A stretch of 63,785 bases of DNA, the filler included, from Collodictyon triciliatum (taxonomy: Eukaryota), in assembly GCA_043381765.1 (NCBI GenBank). It is 13 parts of 13 records of this genome, joined end to end, with 100 filler letters (N's around TTAATTAATTAA, not from the genome) between each part and the next. Parts side by side here need not be neighbours in the genome. Positions count along the whole stretch, not along the records: positions 1 to 5,214 come from JBHJMP010005233.1; 12 more parts are not named here. One strand, written 5' to 3'. Position 1 is the stretch's first letter, and each line of letters begins with the position of its first letter. This document shows positions 1 to 60,489 of the stretch, one piece after another. The position numbers and the translations under genes were made by a program. The notes beneath the pieces are model-generated. The model saw only the letters and a program-made list of their open reading frames with translations, did not search any database and was not told where the DNA came from.

Positions 1-69
1 GGATGAGCAAAGAGGTACAAGACTAAAAGAAGTAAGGGAATACCCGAATGCCCATTTTCTTCTGGAGGA

Positions 70-112
70 TGAGCAGGGGTTGAGCAGGGGTTGAGCAGGG
101 GTTGAGCAGGGT
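70..112 (+). repeat. 11-bp tandem repeat (TGAGCAGGGGT) x ~4, G-quadruplex-capable
   Basis: Units at 70-80, 81-91, 92-102 and 103-112 (the last has one fewer G). GGATGAGCA also occurs at 1-9 and 67-75. Confidence 0.95.
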
Positions 113-117
113 TCCCG

Positions 118-282
118 TTAATCAAAAATGACCTTGACTGGCCCTTCTATGATACCGTATATATGGGGCCCCTTTTTCTTTCTGCTCTTTTTCCTCAGTG
201 CCTCCAGCTTATCAAAGTATTCTTTCAGTTCCTCAAAAGTAGAAAAGAGCAGTTCACCGTCCATTGTATATAGTCGTAGCAT
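118..282 (-). CDS. Small viral hypothetical protein (54 aa; 48 aa from the ATG at 264), absent from the ORF track
   Basis: Manual translation MLRLYTMDGELLFSTFEELKEYFDKLEALRKKSRKKKGPHIYGIIEGPVKVIFD*. It follows the ATPase on the same strand and is preceded by the shared upstream motif (TTAAATATCT-N10-ATG). Confidence 0.65.
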   Translation of the reverse strand: MLRLYTMDGELLFSTFEELKEYFDKLEALRKKSRKKKGPHIYGIIEGPVKVIFD

Positions 283-298
283 ATCTAAGACTAGATAT

Positions 299-1021
299 TT
301 AAAAAAGGATTTCTTCCGAGAAGTTCTTGTAAGCTTTGATTCTGCGGGGCACCATCAAGTTGACATAAAGGAAACAATACGGATCTGCTGTAGCAAAATC
401 AAAAACCTGGTCAAAAAGTTTCTGATCGAGATTAGTCATTTCATTGAGGGCTTCCCGTTCGTGTTTGTTGTCGGTATAGAAAGCGACGAGGTGGGAGGCG
501 TTTTGCCGTACCTTGGGATTGAATAGCCTAATGGCGTGCCCCACCACTATCATAGATAGCCTGTAGTGCCTGTGCTGCAACATTTTCTTGAGCAAAGTCT
601 TACTAGGGCGTTCGAAGGCGGTGCCCAGGTCGTCTACCACAAGGAGGTAAGCATTGTCCTTGAACTCGGGGTCACTGGTAATGTCTTTTGTGACTTGTTC
701 AAAGATTTCCTCGTTAAAGTCCTCATACATGCGGCTCTTGTGAAATTTGACACCCTCGTAGCTTGAGTCGTGAATTTCTCCTCCGGAAATGTTTGAAGAG
801 CAGAAATATACCTTGTCGAATATCTGGTGATACATTTCCCGCTTACCCAGCAAATTACTGATCAAGGTTGTTTTACCGCTAGCGACTTTTGCACTTATAA
901 GCATCCAGAAGGGTCTATCACTTTTTGCGTCAGGCAATATTTCTAGAATGACTTCCCGCTTGTTTTTCTTGGCTGTCTTTAATGGGGCAACCTCAACGTT
1001 ACTTACTTTCTTGCTTTCCAT
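299..1021 (-). CDS. A32/FtsK-HerA-family viral genome packaging ATPase
   Basis: Walker A ISAKVASGKTT, Walker B LLVVDD, Arg-finger region QHRHYRLSMIVVGH, PKVRQNASHL, and C-terminal ATADPYCFLYVN typical of PLV/virophage ATPases. Confidence 0.92.
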   Translation of the reverse strand: MESKKVSNVEVAPLKTAKKNKREVILEILPDAKSDRPFWMLISAKVASGKTTLISNLLGKREMYHQIFDKVYFCSSNISGGEIHDSSYEGVKFHKSRMYEDFNEEIFEQVTKDITSDPEFKDNAYLLVVDDLGTAFERPSKTLLKKMLQHRHYRLSMIVVGHAIRLFNPKVRQNASHLVAFYTDNKHEREALNEMTNLDQKLFDQVFDFATADPYCFLYVNLMVPRRIKAYKNFSEEILF

Positions 1022-1027
1022 ACTTAT

Positions 1028-1357
1028 CTAACGAAATAAAAGATCATTGTCGTACGAAAGTTCTCTGACTTGAGCCTTGTCTACTATCTCCTTGGTTCTG
1101 CGCTTCTCGATTTTTCTAGCCTCTTCCTTTGTCAAGTATTGTTTGATCAAGCTTAAATCGTGCTGCATTGCGCTGTAGTCGTGAATGGGCTTTTTGACGG
1201 CCTCGTATTTTTTGACAGTCTGAACGATTTCCTTGTTCTTCTTTTTAGCTTCTGTTGCTTTAGGCTGGATTCTGGCAAGGTGCGCTCTCTGCTTTTCTGA
1301 AACTACGCGTTTCTTTTTTGGTCTCTCGATGGTATCCATGTTTTCCGGGTCGCTCAT
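1028..1357 (-). CDS. Small basic viral protein, putative DNA-binding/core protein
   Basis: 109 aa, K/R-rich, with KKKRVVSEKQRAHLARIQ; lies 6 bp upstream of the ATPase. Function is inferred. Confidence 0.65.
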   Translation of the reverse strand: MSDPENMDTIERPKKKRVVSEKQRAHLARIQPKATEAKKKNKEIVQTVKKYEAVKKPIHDYSAMQHDLSLIKQYLTKEEARKIEKRRTKEIVDKAQVRELSYDNDLLFR

Positions 1358-1367
1358 ACAACCGCAA

Positions 1368-1380
1368 AGAAATAATTTCT
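1368..1380. promoter_or_regulatory. Palindromic bidirectional promoter candidate AGAAATAATTTCT
   Basis: Sits in the 33-bp gap between the divergent ATGs at 1357(-) and 1391(+). On each strand it ends in ATTTCT exactly 10 nt before the ATG. Confidence 0.65.
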
Positions 1381-1390
1381 GGCCCAGAGT

Positions 1391-2158
1391 ATGGACAAAG
1401 CGTTTTACATTTATGTTGATTCTGCGAACCGAGAAAGCGGAAGCATCGCAGATTTTAATTTCGCAACGACACAGAACAGATATGTGTCGAGTAAAGCAAA
1501 AGTCGGATTAGAGAGCATCCAGATACCTTTTGCCGTACACAATGTCACGAGTTCTAATAATGAATTGTCCTTTCTTTGCCAAGTCGGAGCAGCTAGTCCT
1601 GTTTCGTACAATGTGTCACTTGATGTTGGACTACAAACAATCCAAGAAATAGTCGCTGACATTAAAGCAAAAATGGATGCAGTCACGGCGTCCCAGTCAG
1701 CTGATGCAAAAGTTACAGTCCAATTTCTTTTCAACAAACAAAAGATTCGAATTAAAGGAGACGGAGCGAGTATTTCATATCAGCTGTTTGTAAATTCTAG
1801 TACATGTAGAGAGCTAATCGGGCTGACGGCTAATCTATCATTCAATACGTCGTTTGTTGAGATGCAGAATATGGTAAACATTCGACCCTTTGAATACGTG
1901 TATTTAGTCAGCCCCAATATTCAGTCGTCAAGTTTTGCCAGCAACATAGGCGGCAATGGCATCATCGCAAAAATACCGCTGAGTCTTGGTTCACGGTACG
2001 CAAATTATTATGAGGTCAATGACAACATTCTCGAGAATCTGATGGACTGCTCGTATATCCCATTTAGCTGGAATTTCCGATTGGTAGATAGACTAGGACG
2101 GACAATTAACCAGTTACAAGACTATTCGTTTACGCTGCGTGTAATTCCAGAGGAATAA
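1391..2158 (+). CDS. Minor capsid protein (penton, single jelly roll) of PLV type
   Basis: N-terminal YIYVDSANRESGSIADFNF, VGLESIQIPFAVHNVTSSNN, and C-terminal IIAKIPL...FRLVDRLGRTI...DYSFTLRV match the PLV/NCLDV penton pattern. Confidence 0.82.
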   Translation: MDKAFYIYVDSANRESGSIADFNFATTQNRYVSSKAKVGLESIQIPFAVHNVTSSNNELSFLCQVGAASPVSYNVSLDVGLQTIQEIVADIKAKMDAVTASQSADAKVTVQFLFNKQKIRIKGDGASISYQLFVNSSTCRELIGLTANLSFNTSFVEMQNMVNIRPFEYVYLVSPNIQSSSFASNIGGNGIIAKIPLSLGSRYANYYEVNDNILENLMDCSYIPFSWNFRLVDRLGRTINQLQDYSFTLRVIPEE

Positions 2159-2174
2159 ATTCTTGGCAATTGTA

Positions 2175-3539
2175 ATGGGGTTTTTCATAACAGAAGAAAA
2201 AGAGTTACCTGAATTTTCCAATCAAGACGCAAACAAAGTATTAAAAGTAGATGCGAGTGGGCTTTATTTACAGTGGCTGCAGGAATTAGCTGAGCTGCCT
2301 AGCCAAACTGGTAACGCAAACAGACTTTTGACGACGAACGGGACAACCCCGTCGTGGACAGATGCACCATCAGTCAGTTCTCTTACTTGTGGAGGAAATA
2401 TAACTTTTACAGCTTTTAATGGTCAACTGAGGAGAACTGATAATGTATTTATAAATTTATACGAAGAACAGTTTACCCGGGCTATATCACTAAATACCGG
2501 TTCTAATCCGGCCACAAGAAGAAGATTGCATTTACTCGAAGGTAACTTTACTATTGAAAATAGCGTTTTAAGTGTAACCAACGCGGTGACTCATACAATC
2601 GCAGGACAGTTAAATCTTACAACAGCAGGATCGGCAGCTGCCCCGTCTCTGTTATTTAATGACACAACAACACCCAGTGGATTGTGGGGCACGGACAACA
2701 ATATATTTATTGGAACCGGTGGAGTACAACGAATGAACATTAACAACGATGGTATTTTTATATCAGGTGCAAATAATGGCTTACGGGGTATATTAGATAT
2801 AACAGACAGTAGTAGTTCAGCAACAGCACCTAGTATAAAAATAAACGCATCTTCTGGAAATGACACTGGAATATTTTCCAACTTTCAGAATAGATTACAG
2901 ATTGCTGTCGCAGGGACAGAAATATTTAGATTTGAGAATGATGTAAATTCAAACTATAACATATTAAACCTCAGTGACCATCTTAGGATGGTAAATAACA
3001 AAGAAATACAGTTTGGCACAACAACTTTCGGAACAAATGCGATTAAAGGCACTTATGCCGGCGACAATTCAGAAATTTTGTTTACAATTGGAGACATTCA
3101 ACACGTCCAGTTTAAAAAAAGCCAAGTAAACTTTTTGCGAAATGTATCCTTTGGGCAATGTCCCTTATATGATTTTACTTTATTCAGTAACAATTCATCA
3201 GAGTATCAAATTGGTACAAATACACCCCCGGTTATATTTTTCAGCCCACCCGCGGCCAACAATAGCACTAATACAGTCTATTTTCCAGTGTGTGCTAATT
3301 TACCAGTGGGGTGGCAGGTGCGTATCATTTTCCACAATATGAATGATACCTGGATAAATAACAGAGGCCGTTTAAGATTTGGTACACAAACAGTTAATCT
3401 GTTTCGCACAGGGGTTTCGTCTTGGAATGTAGATGATTATAATGAATTGGTAAATGGGACAGTTGTTGATGTAATAAATTATCGTCGCGATGTAACAGCA
3501 GACAGTCGCTGGTATGTCATTGGTGTCGTTAGTCCATAA
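2175..3539 (+). CDS. Fibre/receptor-binding-like protein with phage tail-fibre motifs
   Basis: LPSQTGNANRLLTTNGTTPSW and two GSAAAPS/SSATAPS...TG repeats; N/T/G-rich beta composition; directly follows the penton. ATG 2175 is preferred over TTG 2163 because of the upstream motif. Confidence 0.7.
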   Translation: MGFFITEEKELPEFSNQDANKVLKVDASGLYLQWLQELAELPSQTGNANRLLTTNGTTPSWTDAPSVSSLTCGGNITFTAFNGQLRRTDNVFINLYEEQFTRAISLNTGSNPATRRRLHLLEGNFTIENSVLSVTNAVTHTIAGQLNLTTAGSAAAPSLLFNDTTTPSGLWGTDNNIFIGTGGVQRMNINNDGIFISGANNGLRGILDITDSSSSATAPSIKINASSGNDTGIFSNFQNRLQIAVAGTEIFRFENDVNSNYNILNLSDHLRMVNNKEIQFGTTTFGTNAIKGTYAGDNSEILFTIGDIQHVQFKKSQVNFLRNVSFGQCPLYDFTLFSNNSSEYQIGTNTPPVIFFSPPAANNSTNTVYFPVCANLPVGWQVRIIFHNMNDTWINNRGRLRFGTQTVNLFRTGVSSWNVDDYNELVNGTVVDVINYRRDVTADSRWYVIGVVSP

Positions 3540-3560
3540 ATTACGACTGTCGTAAGTCCA

Positions 3561-3593
3561 TAAACAATTATTATTAATAGTAACAATTGTTTA
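3561..3593. terminator. AT-rich hairpin between convergent viral genes (candidate termination/polyadenylation signal)
   Basis: TAAACAATTATTATT-AAT-AGTAACAATTGTTTA forms a 15-bp stem with one mismatch and one G-U pair, closed by a 3-nt loop. Confidence 0.55.
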
Positions 3594-5213
3594 ATAAATT
3601 GCCTGTGAAAGGTTTTTCGGTTTATAACCAAAGACGCTTTCTGTGACCGGGCCGTACCTCTTGCCTTTAGATGAGCTGTAATATTGAGCGTCTCGGGCTG
3701 TACCGAAAATTGCCTTTTCACCCCGTGGTCCGCTTACGACGTAATTCAGGCCCTGTCTGCGGATGACACTGTTTGGCTGTGCGCCTACAAATATTGTGCC
3801 CATGTCAGAGTTGACTACTTGCCCGAGGGACCGGTTCAAGAACGCGACTGAGCGGGTGTTAACATTTGACTGATCGGTGTACCTTGGTTGGTACTTGAGA
3901 GGCCATGCTCCAGCTGCTCTTGCACTGGCAATGATTGCGTTCAGGTCCTCTCTTGTAGTACCCGGAGTATAAAATGAAGTTACAATTTCTTCGAGATAAC
4001 TAGTGTCGCTTGTTAAATCAACTGCTTCGATGCCATATGTTGCCATAGCATTTAAGAATGTATCATAAGAATTAAAAGCGAATGTGGTGTTATTCGTACG
4101 CAGGTTAGCGGTTTCAAAGAACCGTGACACTTTCTGAGCAAATCGGCTAGCATTGGACGTGTCTCGGGAATCTCTGACTTGCGGTCTGTTTGGTGCAAAG
4201 ACTGGTGTCATACTTGGTGTAGCTCCAACAAACGAGGGGGTAACTGGATTGATACCTGCGCCGCGTTGGGAAGCAGTAAATGATTGTTGCGAACGTGATC
4301 CCATACCAGTACCGAGAGGATTATTTTGCGGCTGTCTTGGGGTTGTGGCTCCGCTACCCCCTCTGGGTGTAGTAGCACCCCCTTGTCTCAGTCGTGCTTT
4401 CAGTCTTTCTACATTTGCTTGTAGGTCAATATTTTCTTGGACGAGTCTTTGATTTTCTTGTTCTCGTTCTCTACCTTCTCGGGCTTGGAATTGAATTGTG
4501 CTACCTTGTGCCTGTGTTTGTGCCATTAAATTGCGTATGGTCTGAGCATCTGTTTCCCTGTCTGCTTGTAATTGTCGAAGTGCCTCGTCTGATTGACGCA
4601 CAAGGTCAAGGTTACTTTGTTGTAATTTAGCTATCGTTTCTTCATATCCATCCACTGTATTATCATATTGGTTTTTTAAACCCTTTATTTCTCGTTCACG
4701 TCTTTTAGTTCTATTTTGTTGTTGCTCTGGAGTACCACCAGTTACAGGGTTTTTAGCTTGCCTTTGTCTTTCAGCTTCAAGTTTGTCTTCTGCTTCTTGT
4801 CTTGCTTTTTCTGCTTCTATAAGCTCTTGTTGTATTCGTTGGTTTCTGGCTTGCTCCTCGTTAGCGCGGTTGATTGCTTGTTTCAGTCTTTTGGGTGTGG
4901 CCTTGGATGCGGCAATAGCAGCTTCTAAGTCGGCTTTTAATTTTTCTTCAATGGCAACTCCATCATTAAGTTTAACTTCTTTTTCATTTAGTTGTCTTTG
5001 TAGGTCTCTTATCTGTTCAGTTTGTTGTGCGAGTAACTCTCGTTGTCGATTGAGTTCAGCGGGGGTTGTGCTTGGTTGAGCTTGTGTTTGCTGTTGTTGT
5101 TGTGTCAATAGATCAAGTCGACCCTGTAAATCTGCCATTTGTTGTCGCAGCTCTTGATTCCTAGCCTGCTCTTCATTTGCTCTTTTAGCTGCTTCCTGGG
5201 CTAGCCTACTTGG
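3591..5213 (-). CDS. Q/E/R-rich coiled-coil viral protein, 5'-truncated
   Basis: The frame stays open upstream of 5138 to the contig end (PSRLAQEAAKRANEEQARNQELRQQM). Internal repeats RANEEQARNQ x2 and GATTPR x2; probable globular C-terminus. Confidence 0.75.
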   Translation of the reverse strand, partial: PSRLAQEAAKRANEEQARNQELRQQMADLQGRLDLLTQQQQQTQAQPSTTPAELNRQRELLAQQTEQIRDLQRQLNEKEVKLNDGVAIEEKLKADLEAAIAASKATPKRLKQAINRANEEQARNQRIQQELIEAEKARQEAEDKLEAERQRQAKNPVTGGTPEQQQNRTKRREREIKGLKNQYDNTVDGYEETIAKLQQSNLDLVRQSDEALRQLQADRETDAQTIRNLMAQTQAQGSTIQFQAREGREREQENQRLVQENIDLQANVERLKARLRQGGATTPRGGSGATTPRQPQNNPLGTGMGSRSQQSFTASQRGAGINPVTPSFVGATPSMTPVFAPNRPQVRDSRDTSNASRFAQKVSRFFETANLRTNNTTFAFNSYDTFLNAMATYGIEAVDLTSDTSYLEEIVTSFYTPGTTREDLNAIIASARAAGAWPLKYQPRYTDQSNVNTRSVAFLNRSLGQVVNSDMGTIFVGAQPNSVIRRQGLNYVVSGPRGEKAIFGTARDAQYYSSSKGKRYGPVTESVFGYKPKNLSQAIY

Positions 5214-5214
5214 G

Positions 5215-5314
5215 NNNNNNNNNNNNNNNNNNNNNNNNNNNNNNNNNNNNNNNNNNNNTTAATTAATTAANNNNNNNNNNNNNNNNNNNNNNNNNNNNNN
5301 NNNNNNNNNNNNNN
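5215..5314. other. Artificial contig spacer (44N-TTAATTAATTAA-44N); the same spacer begins at 10715, 16213, 21710, 27200, 32693, 38187, 43683, 49175, 54670, 60161 and 62095
   Basis: Identical 100-bp linker with stops in all six frames; most contigs between linkers are about 5.39-5.40 kb. Confidence 0.98.
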
Positions 5315-54530: not shown

Positions 54531-54769
54531 CTATAATGAATAAGATACAAAAAAAAAACATTATAATATTATTTGATATGATATGATATGATATGATATG
54601 ATATGATATGATATGATATGATATGATATGATATGATATGATATGATATGATATGATATGATATGATATNNNNNNNNNNNNNNNNNNNNNNNNNNNNNNN
54701 NNNNNNNNNNNNNTTAATTAATTAANNNNNNNNNNNNNNNNNNNNNNNNNNNNNNNNNNNNNNNNNNNN

Positions 54770-55905
54770 TCAATCCCAATCTCAGTCTCAGTCTCAGTCT
54801 CAGTCTCAGTCTCAGTCTCAGTCTCAATCTCAGTCTCAGTCTCAATCTCAATCCCAATCCCAATCCCAATCCCAATCCCAATCCCAATCCCAATCTCAGT
54901 CTCAGTCTCAGTCCCAATCCCAATCCCAATCCCAGTCCCGATCTCAGTCTCAATCTCACTCTCACTCTCAGTCTCAGTCTCAGTCTCAGTCTCAGTCTCA
55001 GTCTCACTCTCAGTCTCAATCTCAGTCTCAATCTCAATCCCAATCCCAGTCTCAGTCTCACTCTCAGTCTCAATCTCAGTCTCAATCTCCATCTCAGTCT
55101 CAATCCCAATCGCAATCACAGTCTCAATCCCAGTCTCAATCCCAGTCTCAGTCTCAGTCTCAATCCCAATCTCAATCTCAATCTCAGTCTCAGTCTCAGT
55201 CTCAATCTCAGTCTCAGTCTCAATCTCAGTCTCAATCCCAATCTCAGTCTCAGTCTCAGTCTCAGTCTCAATCTCAGTCTCAGTCTCAATCTCAGTCTCA
55301 ATCCCAATCCCAGTCTCAATCTCAATCCCAGTCTCAGTCTCAATCCCAATCTCAGTCTCAGTCTCAGTCTCAATCTCAGTCTCAGTCTCAATCTCAGTCT
55401 CAGTCTCAGTCTCAGTCTCTGTCTCTGTCTCTGTCTCTGTCTCTGTCTCTGTCTCTGTCTCTGTCTCAGACTCAGTCTCAGTCTCAGTCTCAGTCTCAAT
55501 CCCAATCCCAATCCCAATCTCTGTCTCAGTCTCAATCTCAATCTCAATCCCAATCCAAATCTCAATCTCAGTCTCAATCTCAATCTCTGTCTCAGACTCA
55601 GTCTCAGTCTCAGTCTCAGTCTCAATCTCAATCTCAATCTCAGTCTCAGTCTCAATCCCAATCCAAACCCATATCCCAATCTCAGTCTCAGTCTCAGTCT
55701 CAGTCTCTATCTCAGTCTCAATCTCAGTCTCAATCCCAATCTCAGTCTCAGTCTCAGTCTCAGTCTCAGTCTCAGTCTCAGTCTCAGTCTCAGTCTCAGT
55801 CTCAATCTCAATCTCAATCGCAGTCTCAATCCCAATCCCAATCTCAATCCCAATCCCAATCTCAATCCCAATCCCAATCTCAATCTCAATCCCAATCCCA
55901 ATCTC
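54770..55905 (+). repeat. Coding hexamer repeat encoding about 380 residues of (Ser-Gln)n
   Basis: TCT/TCC/TCG/TCA alternate with CAG/CAA in constant phase; a second tract lies at ~60048-60160. Confidence 0.9.
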
Positions 55906-58900
55906 ATTCACATTCACCGTTGTCGCCCATGTGCCTTAACGGTGAGATTAAGAACCAATGTGGTTCATGCGGTCCAGTTGAACCGGATGTTGACGTATCT
56001 CTCCAGTTCTCTCCTATCACAGCCGCATTCACTCATCCAGTCGCCCAAAAGTTATCAAAATGGACATCTCTGCGAAATGTGACCGGAATCACAGATTCCG
56101 CAACTATAGACCTGCAGGCTTCAATATCTGATATTTCTTCTGCTGCAACCCAACTGACACCTTCTAAAGCTGCACCCGTCGCTCCAACTGGGATTACATT
56201 AACTACAAAAATATTTAGCTCTTCACCGACACTGACCCTTCGTGTCTGGCTCACTGGACAAAACGGCGAGACTAACAACATGGGCGGCACCATTACCATC
56301 GGAACAGTTGAGATACCGTCCTTGATGTCTTCATGCATATACGATGGGTTGAACCCATGTTTGGCTTCTCTGACAGTTCCAGTGTCGGCCTTCACATCTA
56401 CCGATACCACTATCACCCCTGTAGCATCATTTGCCACAAAGATTGTCACATTGACATCAGCTACGCTCGTCGCCTTACCCAACTATGGCCCCAATCCATC
56501 TGCAGGAATGAAATTGCAACTGCCACAGAAACCCAACCTACCTTCATCCATATTCACATCAACATTGACAGCGTACACAAACGGAAGAGTGCTTGAAGGT
56601 CTCAATGTTGTCATCAATATACCATCCTCTGTGGCGTCCATTGTGAGCATCAGCGGAGATAATAAGTTTTCGGGTGCAACAAACATCCAACACAATAGTG
56701 CATCGATTGTGTGGACACGACAAAGTGGCGCCAGCGACTCATCTGCCACAGGAGCGGTCAACGTCGCAACAATCACATGGAAGATGAACGATTCACCCAC
56801 ACAGATTAGTGGCGAAGTCAGCTTCGTAATCAAACAGATGACAGACGTCCAGAACATACCGATAGTCAGCGAGTCAACAAACGGTGTTGTGTTTGATATC
56901 ACGCAGTCAAGCGAGAAAGGGTTTATTGTTGTTTCTCAAGACTCCATACGAGGTCACTTCATCACTTCTCTTCAGCAGCAAATCGTCAACACAGCCGTAA
57001 TCAACAAACGCAGTGTGACTGTACCACTGAAAGTATTAGAGTTCTACGAGTTTCAAACACCAAAAGACATTACCTCACAAGCATCATGCACCAGCTCCGA
57101 CCCACAAGTCGCACCCGTACAAGGCTGTACTATTGCCATGACAGGGAGTGAGACATCCGGCTCAAGCTTTGTGTCGCTCTCACACAGCGCTGCAACCACT
57201 GGTGTCCGTGTGTGGTATCCAGCAGCTCCTGTCAGTATAATCGCCCAGGACACGATAATCAACCGAATCTCCAACTTCAAGACCGTTGATTGCACTGGCT
57301 ACAGATACCAAAGCTGCAAAATCACTGCGTCTGTGTCATTTGTGAGCGGAAGCGACAGCTTCTTTGCCGATGTATCCGACTTGATTACGCTAGAGGTATC
57401 TGACAGCCGTATTATTAGCGTGAAAGATAACACAGTTATTGTCGGTATTGCAGCAGGAGTCGCTACAGTCAATGTCGCCGGTTTCCAATCAAATACAATA
57501 TCATTGAGCGTGACCGACATCGAAGTCTCCGTGACGAAGCTGATGCCAATCGTGTTCACCGATGTATCGATAATTTCAGTGATGCCAAGTAGTGCATTGA
57601 CACCCACATCCATCAGCAGCGTGAAAGCATCTGTGTCTCAAAATCTAGACTTTGAAGGCAAGATAGGATATGTTGTGGTCTATGCCTACTTTTCTGATGA
57701 CACACGAATGGAGGTACAGGAGTCAGACGGACTCGCCATAACATCAACCAATCCTTCCATTTCAGTCATGAGCTCGCCTCCAAGAGTGATATCAGTCTCA
57801 AATGGATGTGGATACTATGTCAATGTACAGTGGAGCTCCTGTGGCAAGAGCCTGGGTGACGGACTCGGACTCGTCAACTTGAATCTACCCAAGATTACTC
57901 AAATAGCAGTGACTATCACAGATACAAAAATCACGAGTGACAATGACCTATCAACAAGTGTTGGCATACCCACGAAGAGCATCCTGGAGGTCATGTGCAC
58001 GTTCGAGAATGGAAAGGAAAAGGACTACACACTTGACTCCAGGACAAACTATGACGACATCACAGCCGATACAAGCAATATAATCCAAATTGAGACGACA
58101 ACAGTGTCATCCAGTGTCACAGAGGTCTATGTGGTTGCAACAGGCAATGGCTTCGGAACTGCGACGATAGTAGTGACAGTCAACAGCGCACCCAATTTAC
58201 AGGGAAGCGTGGACATCAATGTGATTGGATTTGCGTCGCTGCGTGTCTCGTCCAGTCCATATCCAACATACACAGGCTCCAGCACAGTGTCACTGACTAA
58301 GCTGACTCGCTATGCATGCACACAGGTCTATCAAAGAGCGACGCTGGCATTGTCCATGAGACTAACTGACAACTCCGTTCATGACATCACGTCAAAACCA
58401 CTGACTGTATTTTCTGTACCTACAAGTCAGCAAAATATTTTGGCAATCACAGACAAAACAGTTCTTGAACCAACTGGCACAAACTTCGGAAATGCTACAA
58501 TCACAGCCTCATACGGCGATGCATCAGCTACAATAGACATCGTGGTTGCGGACGAAACAGTGAGCGCAACATCGCTAGCAACCGTATTTCCGTCAACATA
58601 CACTAGTTTCATCGGAATATCATCACAAAGCATCAAAGCGACTGCCGTATTCCAAGATGGAACAAAACATCCAACGGCTCACTCCATCACTGGGCTACTA
58701 TCTTACACCAGCGATGACCCGACCTCGATAGCTATCGATAACATAGGAACAGCCACTGTTAAAGCAAACTCGCTCAGTATTGTAAAGCTTACATCGTCCA
58801 CATGCTATGGAGTCGTAGGAACGTCGAGCACCTATGCCAATCTTAGCCCGGATGTCGGCGATGTCGATATTGGAAGCACAAGCGGCCTTGCACTGAGCAA

Positions 58901-60160
58901 CATCGCAGTTGGGTCCAGCCTGACAGTTCCTGTCCGTGTCAACACGGGAACAAAGCCACTTGGAAGTATCGATGTCAATCTTATATACCACGCAGACATA
59001 TTCGATATAATATCCTACTCTACTGGAAGTAGCTGGCCAGGTGGACAGTTAGAGATTACGCTGAACGACCCACCGGGAGTCATTCGCATTGTGGGAGCGA
59101 CAAGTGCAACCAGCAACTCAAAGGGAACTTTGGAGGTTGTCAAGCTAGTCATCAGAAGCAAACAGAATGGACTATCATACTTTTCCGGCTTCATCACCAA
59201 GATGCTAGCTAACGACGCAACGTCTTCACCAATCGGAAGCGCACTTGGGCAAGGTCAGACAAGAGCAATAGTAGCTGGTCATGCTCCAGTAAAGAGCGGA
59301 ACGGGAATCAATTCGAGAGCCTCTTGGAGGAACGGAATGAATTTGGATGCGAGACATCAAAATACTGCAACAATACAACATGGTGGCAGTAAATCACAGA
59401 CATGCAATCCAGCTAGTATTCTTGGAAATACGGATGGAGACTGCGAATTCTCAGTCGGCGATGTCCAGTTTACATTGAGATATCTGGCCGGACTAATCAC
59501 CACATCATTACAGCCCCACCAACTTCAATACTTGGATGCAGACAGAAATGGAAACATTCAAGTACAAGACGCTATATACTTGATTCGAGTGCTGTCAAAC
59601 AAATGGCGATTCTTCAATATCCGCACTATTGAGCCGACCAGCTCCAGTTCCTATCTCCAAGTTTCTATAGACTCACAGACAGCTGATATGGCGTACTCGT
59701 CGGTCAAGACGTCATATGACATAATTTTCTTGACTAAATTCAACACAGATATGACCATTACATTTGGGACAAACAAGCAAGCGTTAACTGAAGGATTTCA
59801 AGTATCAAGCGAAGAATTAAACAATGGAACATTCACCGTCATTGGAGAAACATACAATTATGAAAAAATTGGCATTACAATCCATCTGAAAACCTATGAT
59901 AGTCTTGGACAAACATCCAATGACCGAGACGTATCATTTTATCAAGGAGTGGGAGGCACGTATGTGAGTTTTACAACAATAGACGCAAGGTTTGACGCAA
60001 CTAAATCGCAATCGCCATCACATTCAATGTCTAAGTCTATGTTTCAGTCTCAATCTCAATCCCAATCCCAATCCCAATCCCAATCCCAATCCCAATCCCA
60101 ATCCCAATCCCAATCCCAATCCCAATCCCAATCCCAATCCCAATCCCAATCTCAATCCCA
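54771..60160 (+). CDS. Giant extracellular protein: (SQ)n - TMEM132-like (cohesin/Ig) - Ig repeats - cohesin - dockerin - (SQ)n; open at both ends
   Basis: One stop-free, intronless frame covers the whole contig. TMEM132-like motifs IVNTAVIN..VTVPLKV, CTSSDPQV, VRVWYP and C.GYRYQ; cohesin at ~58905-59280; dockerin twin calcium loops NTDGDCEFSVGD and DADRNGNIQVQD. Confidence 0.8.
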
Positions 60161-60386
60161 NNNNNNNNNNNNNNNNNNNNNNNNNNNNNNNNNNNNNNNN
60201 NNNNTTAATTAATTAANNNNNNNNNNNNNNNNNNNNNNNNNNNNNNNNNNNNNNNNNNNNATAATACAAATCGAATTTTTCACTAACAAATTATGCCTCT
60301 TTTCTTTAGGAGGAATGCATCAAAGGTTTATATTCATGTTAAATCATATTTATCAAATATAAATAATAATAATAATAATAATAATG

Positions 60387-60473
<87 letters not shown>

Positions 60474-60489
60474 GTAATAATAATAACAG

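Follow-up and report, generated by a model that had tools for sequence, protein, structure and literature searches.

What reads the particle genes of a small DNA virus that sits in a eukaryotic genome? The question is raised by the first 5,214 positions of a 63,785-nucleotide stretch of Collodictyon triciliatum DNA (GenBank assembly GCA_043381765.1; the window is this whole stretch), where a sequence-only reading had noticed one short AT-rich motif at a fixed distance before all five visible viral start codons. By its gene content, the contig at 1-5214 belongs to a multi-copy Polinton-like virus (PLV), hereafter the element. The motif is in our judgement very probably a promoter, given its position and its restriction to viral starts; it is also probable that it is the core late promoter of this PLV lineage, in the late form of giant viruses (Nucleocytoviricota). 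That such a giant-virus-type late promoter would be read by a helper is likewise probable on the sequence comparisons set out below.

The five motif-spacer-ATG strings proved exact. Four have a 10-nt spacer, at 302-293 before the ATG at 282 (-), 1041-1032 before 1021 (-), 1377-1368 before 1357 (-) and 1371-1380 before 1391 (+), and the fifth, at 2154-2163 before the ATG at 2175 (+), has an 11-nt spacer. The 13-bp palindrome AGAAATAATTTCT was also confirmed at 1368-1380, with 6-bp arms flanking a central A and 17 nt to either ATG. The original pattern precedes 5 of the 140 ATGs in 1-5214 vs 1 of the 2098 ATGs elsewhere in the window, a count that is circular because the pattern was derived from those five sites. 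A wider set was assembled by taking, per gene family, the first ATG following an in-frame stop in genome loci and in 22 metagenome loci. We kept 448 starts (at most 12 residues from the seed start and with 60 N-free upstream bases, failures being dropped before counting); collapsing at 80% identity left 152, namely 98 capsid-module and 54 replication-module starts; some of these are probably miscalled and were counted as misses.

Across this family, W6-TC[TG] ending 10-11 nt before the ATG was found at 58 of the 98 non-redundant capsid-module starts (47 at 10 nt and 11 at 11 nt), whereas 2000 composition-matched shuffles of the same starts averaged 0.92 and never exceeded 6, and none of 652 internal in-frame ATGs had it. 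In held-out genes outside the window (the major capsid protein, MCP, and a 119-aa gene), the box stood at 10-11 nt in 20/31 genome and 8/12 metagenome starts. Thus the fixed-spacing claim generalises in the form W6-TC[TG], but the exact pattern with its fixed A was overfitted (27/98 starts; 10/43 held-out). Admitting TAT and TGT raises the capsid-module count to 74/98. Integrase starts have the TCT form in 3/15 and helicase starts in 0/21, though the latter are equally AT-rich. The box is retained in relatives whose MCPs are 26-27% identical, and in tandem genes it overlaps the end of the preceding gene. The CAT-N10-box-N10-ATG layout recurs in many copies and across subfamilies at two pairs, ORF109/255-aa gene and core119/large open reading frame (ORF). 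A splice-acceptor reading was rejected, as the profile has no fixed AG.

Host genes were compared at 24 starts (histones, actins, Arf-family GTPases and two window genes), selected by eye out of the window and 34 further stretches. None had the box at 9-12 nt before the ATG or a T at -1, and their contexts are A/C-rich; a host initiator element was rejected from these 24 starts. The enrichment over shuffled and host controls, which had been proposed as a check, was borne out.

Giant-virus capsid promoters and a candidate TA initiator

MCP starts of giant viruses were gathered from viral_contigs by means of a degenerate sequence pattern, which does not give a random sample. At least 145 stretches were obtained, reducing to 138 distinct ones and 81 non-redundant upstream regions, and the giant-virus counts given here and below hold among the matches listed. 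The five set members tested are all capsids of nucleocytoplasmic large DNA viruses (NCLDV) by Pfam. W6-T[CG]T lies 3-35 nt from the ATG in 73/81 of these MCP genes (shuffles: mean 22.1, maximum 35), so that the proposed scan of giant-virus capsid genes for the motif came out positive. By MCP N-terminal type, the box is present in 34/37, 17/20 and 16/17. The further hope, that the motif could identify the helper, finds no support in view of this spread over all three types: from the sequences compared, the box is too widespread in giant viruses to name a helper. One of the three types resembles prasinovirus capsids; if this label is right, the box also serves viruses that are not known to encode an RNA polymerase, and it may be viral initiation factors, not a viral polymerase, that read it.

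The TCT-anchored profiles of the two sets agree, both showing four A, TT, a relaxed A/T column, TTT, TCT and TT(G/A). In the columns outside the core they correlate at r=0.83, while the nulls (shuffled sites and host sites) reach at most 0.62 and 0.63. The 12-mer AAATTATTTTCT occurs in 12 giant-virus promoters and in 10 element promoters, and when a matrix is trained solely on giant-virus promoters, its top-scoring site falls 10-11 nt before the ATG in 73/98 element starts.

The spacing to the start codon differs, with W6-TCT at 10-11 nt from the ATG in only 2/81 giant-virus MCP genes and the box mostly at 13-28 nt. W6-TCT precedes just 10/62 neighbouring non-MCP giant-virus genes. A giant-virus lineage with a fixed-10 rule was not found: around 15 loci chosen for TTTCT-N10-ATG at an MCP-like start, 0/62 neighbours had the box at 10-11 nt. 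In giant-virus promoters, the distance from the box to a TA is fixed (gap 10 in 64%), and the ATG follows further on, variably. In the element, TA occurs at gap 9 in 81% and at gap 10 in 13% of sites; counting either gap, it is found at 58/62 element sites and 63/73 giant-virus sites. The element therefore shows the giant-virus late-promoter form, an A/T-tract box that ends in TCT, with TA 9-10 nt downstream.

The TA of the element mostly consists of the T at -1 and the A of the ATG, which would explain why the box-ATG distance is fixed. T is found at -1 in 47/51 ten-nt element sites vs 4/24 helicase/ORF173 starts (p=1e-10). Where the spacer is 11 nt, a separate TA at gap 9 is present in 3/11, including the window fibre gene. 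By analogy, the initiator would thus be fused with the start codon in the element.

Candidate readers of the box

The proposed promoter comprises an A-tract, a T-tract ending in TCT (variants TAT, TGT and TCG) and a TA initiator 9-10 nt on. Giant-virus late initiation factors would bind the box, and the particle genes would be turned on late in co-infection. TA would be the transcription start, by analogy with African swine fever virus (ASFV), in which late genes start at TA(+1)TA with short leaders of median 9 nt (PMC7163114; this and the other papers cited here were drawn on in excerpt). Because this TA is mostly shared with the start codon, the mRNAs would have a very short templated leader or none, hence the fixed distance to the ATG. 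The near-palindromic box could let one site drive two head-to-head genes, and hairpins would terminate the transcription units. At fibre 3' ends, hairpins of at least 13 pairs were found in 7/8 (shuffles about 7 pairs), and elsewhere after helicase in 6/16, MCP 6/21, ORF109 5/15, the minor capsid protein (mCP) 0/9 and core119 1/29. A hairpin after every gene was looked for and not found, the hairpins lying only at unit ends; hairpin ends are also described for Bodo saltans virus (BsV) and mimivirus (PMC5871332).

Other signals mark other genes. The giant-virus early motif AAAATTGA stands before 12/34 small non-structural ORFs and 0/98 capsid-module genes, counted over related copies that are not independent. 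YGCGTT lies about 37 nt before the start of ORF180 in 11/15, integrase in 7/15 and MCP in 6/20, and CTTAAA precedes 13/21 helicase starts; these two make up further classes. As a separate observation, GGTATAAAATTGA is kept before terminal small ORFs (L132, L134, L136, L144, L163) while their flanks diverge, and it resembles TATATAAAATTGA, the proposed ancestral giant-virus box of PMC5294985.

Several points weigh against a helper-read late promoter. On the side of the element, W6-TC[TG] is missing from 40/98 capsid-module starts, TCT is wholly missing from the AT-rich subfamily (to which both pPolB contigs read belong), and the copies are related, so the counts are not independent events. On the side of the comparison, the search pattern made the giant-virus set non-random, both sets are AT-rich and the anchor itself imposes nine columns. 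With the giant-virus matrix, just 45/98 element starts and 2/5 window sites exceed the 95th shuffle percentile, and the modal TA gap is 9 nt in the element vs 10 nt in giant viruses, a one-base offset that is unexplained. The full mimivirus pattern with at most one mismatch precedes 11/98 starts (null mean 4.8, maximum 9). Finally, several small ORFs of the element have no family and could be its own activators, and some PLVs replicate without a helper (PMC10945749).

These last two points feed the alternative that survives best, which we consider unlikely but worth serious attention: host RNA polymerase II would read the box in the nucleus with an element-encoded activator, and the likeness to giant viruses would reflect ancestry or convergence. 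Adenovirus offers a precedent: its IVa2 protein is both a packaging ATPase and an activator of the major late promoter. The rve integrase and the junctions of the element indicate that it integrates in the nucleus, and the NCLDV capsid (PF04451) and VLTF3 (PF04947) families were unmatched in the host genome, in searches without a positive control. However, host promoters lack a similar box within 120 nt of the ATG (any W6-T[CA]T in 1/24, at 77 nt), and the element genes read contain no introns. Selection by a shared reader would maintain the 12-nt match to the most common giant-virus MCP box more readily than descent would, and the giant-virus early motif is present as well, before a different gene class.

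The tight distance to the ATG, together with the T at -1 that accompanies it, could also suit a translation-start signal acting in the mRNA rather than in DNA. This is highly improbable, because the giant-virus box keeps its distance to TA while lying at varying distances from the ATG, host ribosomes do not require a T at A/C-rich starts that lack it, and the head-to-head pairs would need both mRNAs to overlap across one palindrome. Chance, for which the short AT-rich spacers of a compact genome and a first pattern fitted to five sites might have spoken, is refuted by the shuffles, by the positive held-out genes and independent metagenome contigs, and by the negative AT-rich helicase starts.

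The preferred reading is thus a helper-read late promoter of giant-virus type. The virus-specific, position-fixed and promoter-like box with its likeness to giant-virus MCP boxes stands from the first proposal of a virophage-like, giant-virus-read promoter. By its marker genes the element is not a virophage. The specific link to Cafeteria roenbergensis virus (CroV) and mavirus is not supported, as the base following TCT is A in just 16/54 sites; a strict TCTA was rejected, with T in 24, A in 16, G in 10 and C in 4 after W6-TCT. More tentatively, AAATTATTTTCT-N9/10-TA may be shared across much of the giant-virus phylum, the PLV using a compressed form with its initiator fused to the start codon.

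If these proposals are true, capsid-module mRNAs would be nearly leaderless, and two head-to-head pairs would each be served by one palindromic 33-bp promoter. The helper range could be broad, and the element would have promoters of three classes: early (AAAATTGA or CTTAAARACA), YGCGTT at -37, and the late TCT box. For most PLVs the need for a giant virus is unknown, and the 12-base match to giant-virus capsid promoters is evidence, at the sequence level, that a lineage outside the virophages lives in a virophage-like way. The short, fixed motif predicts the start site within one or two bases. Such motifs alone cannot pair a small virus with its helper, because 73/81 of the listed giant-virus MCP genes carry the box.

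The element and the window contig

Bases 1-5214 of the window make up the complete contig G000:C5233; an N linker separates it from the following part, so that no host junction is visible within the window. It contains five complete intronless ORFs and the 3' portion of a sixth. The features are as follows.

118..282 (-): small54, a 54-aa ORF of no assigned function, with 7 close and 5 distant homologues and no Pfam match
283..306 (-): candidate late box TTTTTTAAATATCT ending at 293, then a 10-nt spacer finishing in AT, before the small54 ATG
299..1021 (-): A32-like DNA-packaging ATPase, 240 aa (PF04665, E=1.6e-8, above cut-off; 40 genome matches)
1022..1041 (-): candidate late box variant TTTTATTTCG with a 10-nt spacer, within the last codons of ORF109
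1028..1357 (-): ORF109, a basic helical protein of no assigned function, conserved across all box-bearing subfamilies
1358..1390: head-to-head intergenic region CAT-N10-AGAAATAATTTCT-N10-ATG, with a single palindromic box (1368-1380) for both genes
1391..2158 (+): putative minor capsid protein, 255 aa, labelled from its position
2154..2174 (+): candidate late box AATAAATTCT with an 11-nt spacer finishing in TA, overlapping the stop codon of the 255-aa gene
2175..3539 (+): putative fibre-like protein, 454 aa, with a conserved N-terminus and a variable body; nothing significant in Pfam
3561..3593: AT-rich 14-pair hairpin where the fibre-like and large genes converge, which may signal the 3' end of both
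3591..5213 (-): large ORF with coiled-coil/low-complexity sequence, present here as its 3' part, the start lying past the contig end; other copies have 1000-1580 aa

Small54 is kept in other copies and has a distant homologue, and is therefore taken as a real gene; its box (283..306, -) overlaps the ATPase stop codon, and the broad core is present family-wide in 9/9. The coding overlap with ORF109 may explain TCG instead of TCT in the box at 1022..1041. The 255-aa protein has no Pfam match, so its label lacks profile support, and in the Atlas it lies closest to clusters of viral hypothetical proteins (score 0.98).

Genome-wide, the ATPase has 40 matches, the MCP 67 and the integrase 36, which are pieces and not copy numbers, and the subfamilies lie at about 100-83, 54, 44 and 35% ATPase identity. 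Other copies also encode an SF3 helicase, an rve integrase, small ORFs, the 119-aa gene and the capsid protein. Relatives at 85-99% were found in four metagenome contig sets and none in viral_contigs; the 42 MCP homologues found are all without a name or 'hypothetical'. The MCP is modelled as a double jelly roll (pLDDT 78, pTM 0.81), and this model matches double jelly-roll capsids at E 1e-22 to 1e-13 with 7-12% identity, virophage MCPs ranking below others in the fold searches. The MCP alignment gave no sequence match among solved structures, Sputnik and mavirus MCPs included, and no significant Pfam match.

This content is that of a PLV, with a non-virophage double jelly-roll MCP, an A32-like ATPase (PF04665), an SF3 helicase (DUF5906/D5_N) and an integrase (rve), and a 15.5-kb copy with matching inverted ends on C1334 fits the PLV size of about 15-25 kb with terminal inverted repeats. 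The pPolB, protease and rve integrase that together define Polintons/Mavericks were not found as a set. pPolB occurs on 3 contigs only, and both contigs read belong to the AT-rich subfamily; for the maturation cysteine protease, there was no free ORF in the gap-free ATPase-to-MCP modules L153 and L156, none among the Pfam-scanned proteins, and no PF00770 in the genome (a search without a positive control). Under the marker-gene criteria for virophages (Maveriviricetes) in PMC9952930, the element, by the genes detected, is not a virophage. Pfam gave no polymerase or transcription-factor families in 38 element proteins, save pPolB in the AT-rich subfamily; one of the 38 proved to be a flanking host gene. 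The same element end sequence is joined to four unrelated flanks, which supports integration of the lineage, and no target-site duplication was seen at the sole copy with both ends, which contains N gaps.

The terminal inverted repeats open with a palindrome of ~40 nt (L040:3391-3430 and L041:8859-8898 on G000:C1334; also L043, L118, L132, L142 and L134), possibly a replication or resolution hairpin. It holds W8-TCTA on both strands in one subfamily, and others have a different palindrome. The AT-rich subfamily (GC 0.23-0.27; L047 = G000:C4366, 3519-4157 and 5240-6484; L067) encodes, besides a pPolB fragment, a thymidylate synthase of the ThyX type (PF02511, E=5e-40); it lacks the TCT box and may have a different helper or none. 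Near-identical capsid modules are combined with SF3 helicases of more than one type, some of which have a D5-like part at the N-terminus (L030, L033, L036, L040, L048, L050), showing that modules are exchanged between subfamilies. One copy has an HNH-like endonuclease ORF between the helicase and the small54 homologue (L051:1-315, G000:C962; labelled by eye from an HMDGNP motif).

Elsewhere in the window, four tandem TGAGCAGGGGT-like 10-mers lie at 72-111, downstream of small54. Positions 5215-5314 and later gaps hold a TTAATTAATTAA linker between N runs, i.e. artificial contig joins, and window neighbours therefore need not adjoin in the genome. A large host exon at 54726-60212 (+) resembles a surface receptor that has a cohesin-like region and long Ser-Gln repeats; kinase exons come next, at 60363-61912 (all labelled by eye). 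In addition, the genome has an expanded host family of ~40 ORFs, all long (500-1500 aa), intronless and weakly matched to small GTPases. An actin search matched many groups at 92-96% and so did not place the host lineage, which was treated in this analysis as that of an intron-rich microbial eukaryote.

Known systems compared

The mimivirus/Megavirus late promoter, [AT]8T[AC]TN4[AT]5[AG]TA[TG]A, serves Sputnik, Guarani and Zamilon as well (PMC6510173, PMC11464507). The element shares its W8-T[AC]T first half, its TCT and TAT forms and an AT-rich second half ending in R-T-A; it differs in a spacer that is mostly one base shorter and in a second half that ends in the start codon (RT-ATG). With the one-base-shorter W4 spacer, the mimivirus pattern precedes 27/98 starts (null mean 5.3, maximum 12), 21 of them at one position. 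Moreover, the element box stands before most capsid-module genes and not just a minority of them. Sputnik makes partial use of giant-virus promoters (PMC11998528).

The late motif TCTA of CroV and ChlorV has copies in mavirus and type-4 endogenous mavirus-like elements (EMALEs; PMC8547959, PMC13196603, PMC10945749, PMC5294985), and with CroV only the EMALE type bearing the motif responded (PMC10945749). The AT-flanked TCT near the ATG is shared with the element, exact CroV/mavirus spacing lying outside this comparison. Like mavirus and EMALEs, the element is an integrating, rve-encoding small DNA virus with many copies and with subfamilies that differ in their motif variants; unlike them, it is not a virophage and its fourth base is not fixed as A.

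Among PLVs, PgVV-14T/Gezel-14T carries the early motif AAAATTGA, which its authors contrast with late-promoter use by virophages (bioRxiv 2022.07.28.501842). Both are PLVs with giant-virus promoter motifs and without virophage marker genes. However, our element is dominated by the late-type box, AAAATTGA being limited to small non-structural ORFs, and thus it uses the late promoter class, unlike Gezel-14T.

Vaccinia late promoters have TAAATG and ASFV the late initiator named above (PMC7163114, PMC5294985). Both resemble the element in an AT-rich stretch near a TA initiator, in very short leaders and in an initiator able to abut the start codon; no TCT box is described there in the excerpts, and the starts are mapped there but inferred in the element. 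The BsV late motif is TGCG in an AT-rich context (PMC5871332), and the YGCGTT of the element at about -37 resembles it in 4 bases only, as compared by motif description. Promoter matching in Antarctic viromes gave some matches even to prasinoviruses (PMC11502894), and Halocafeteria virophages offer another case of a promoter shared by small and giant viruses (bioRxiv 2026.07.28.741278).

Promoters common to small and giant viruses are thus already known from the cited excerpts. No description of a late-type TCT box, whether for a PLV lineage or for giant-virus MCP genes in general, was found in the literature searched, which included few subscription papers and whose supplements and figures may bear on this. 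What appears new is that most capsid-module genes of a PLV lineage have a late-type box in front of them, that this box is widespread in giant-virus MCP genes, and that initiator and start codon are probably fused.

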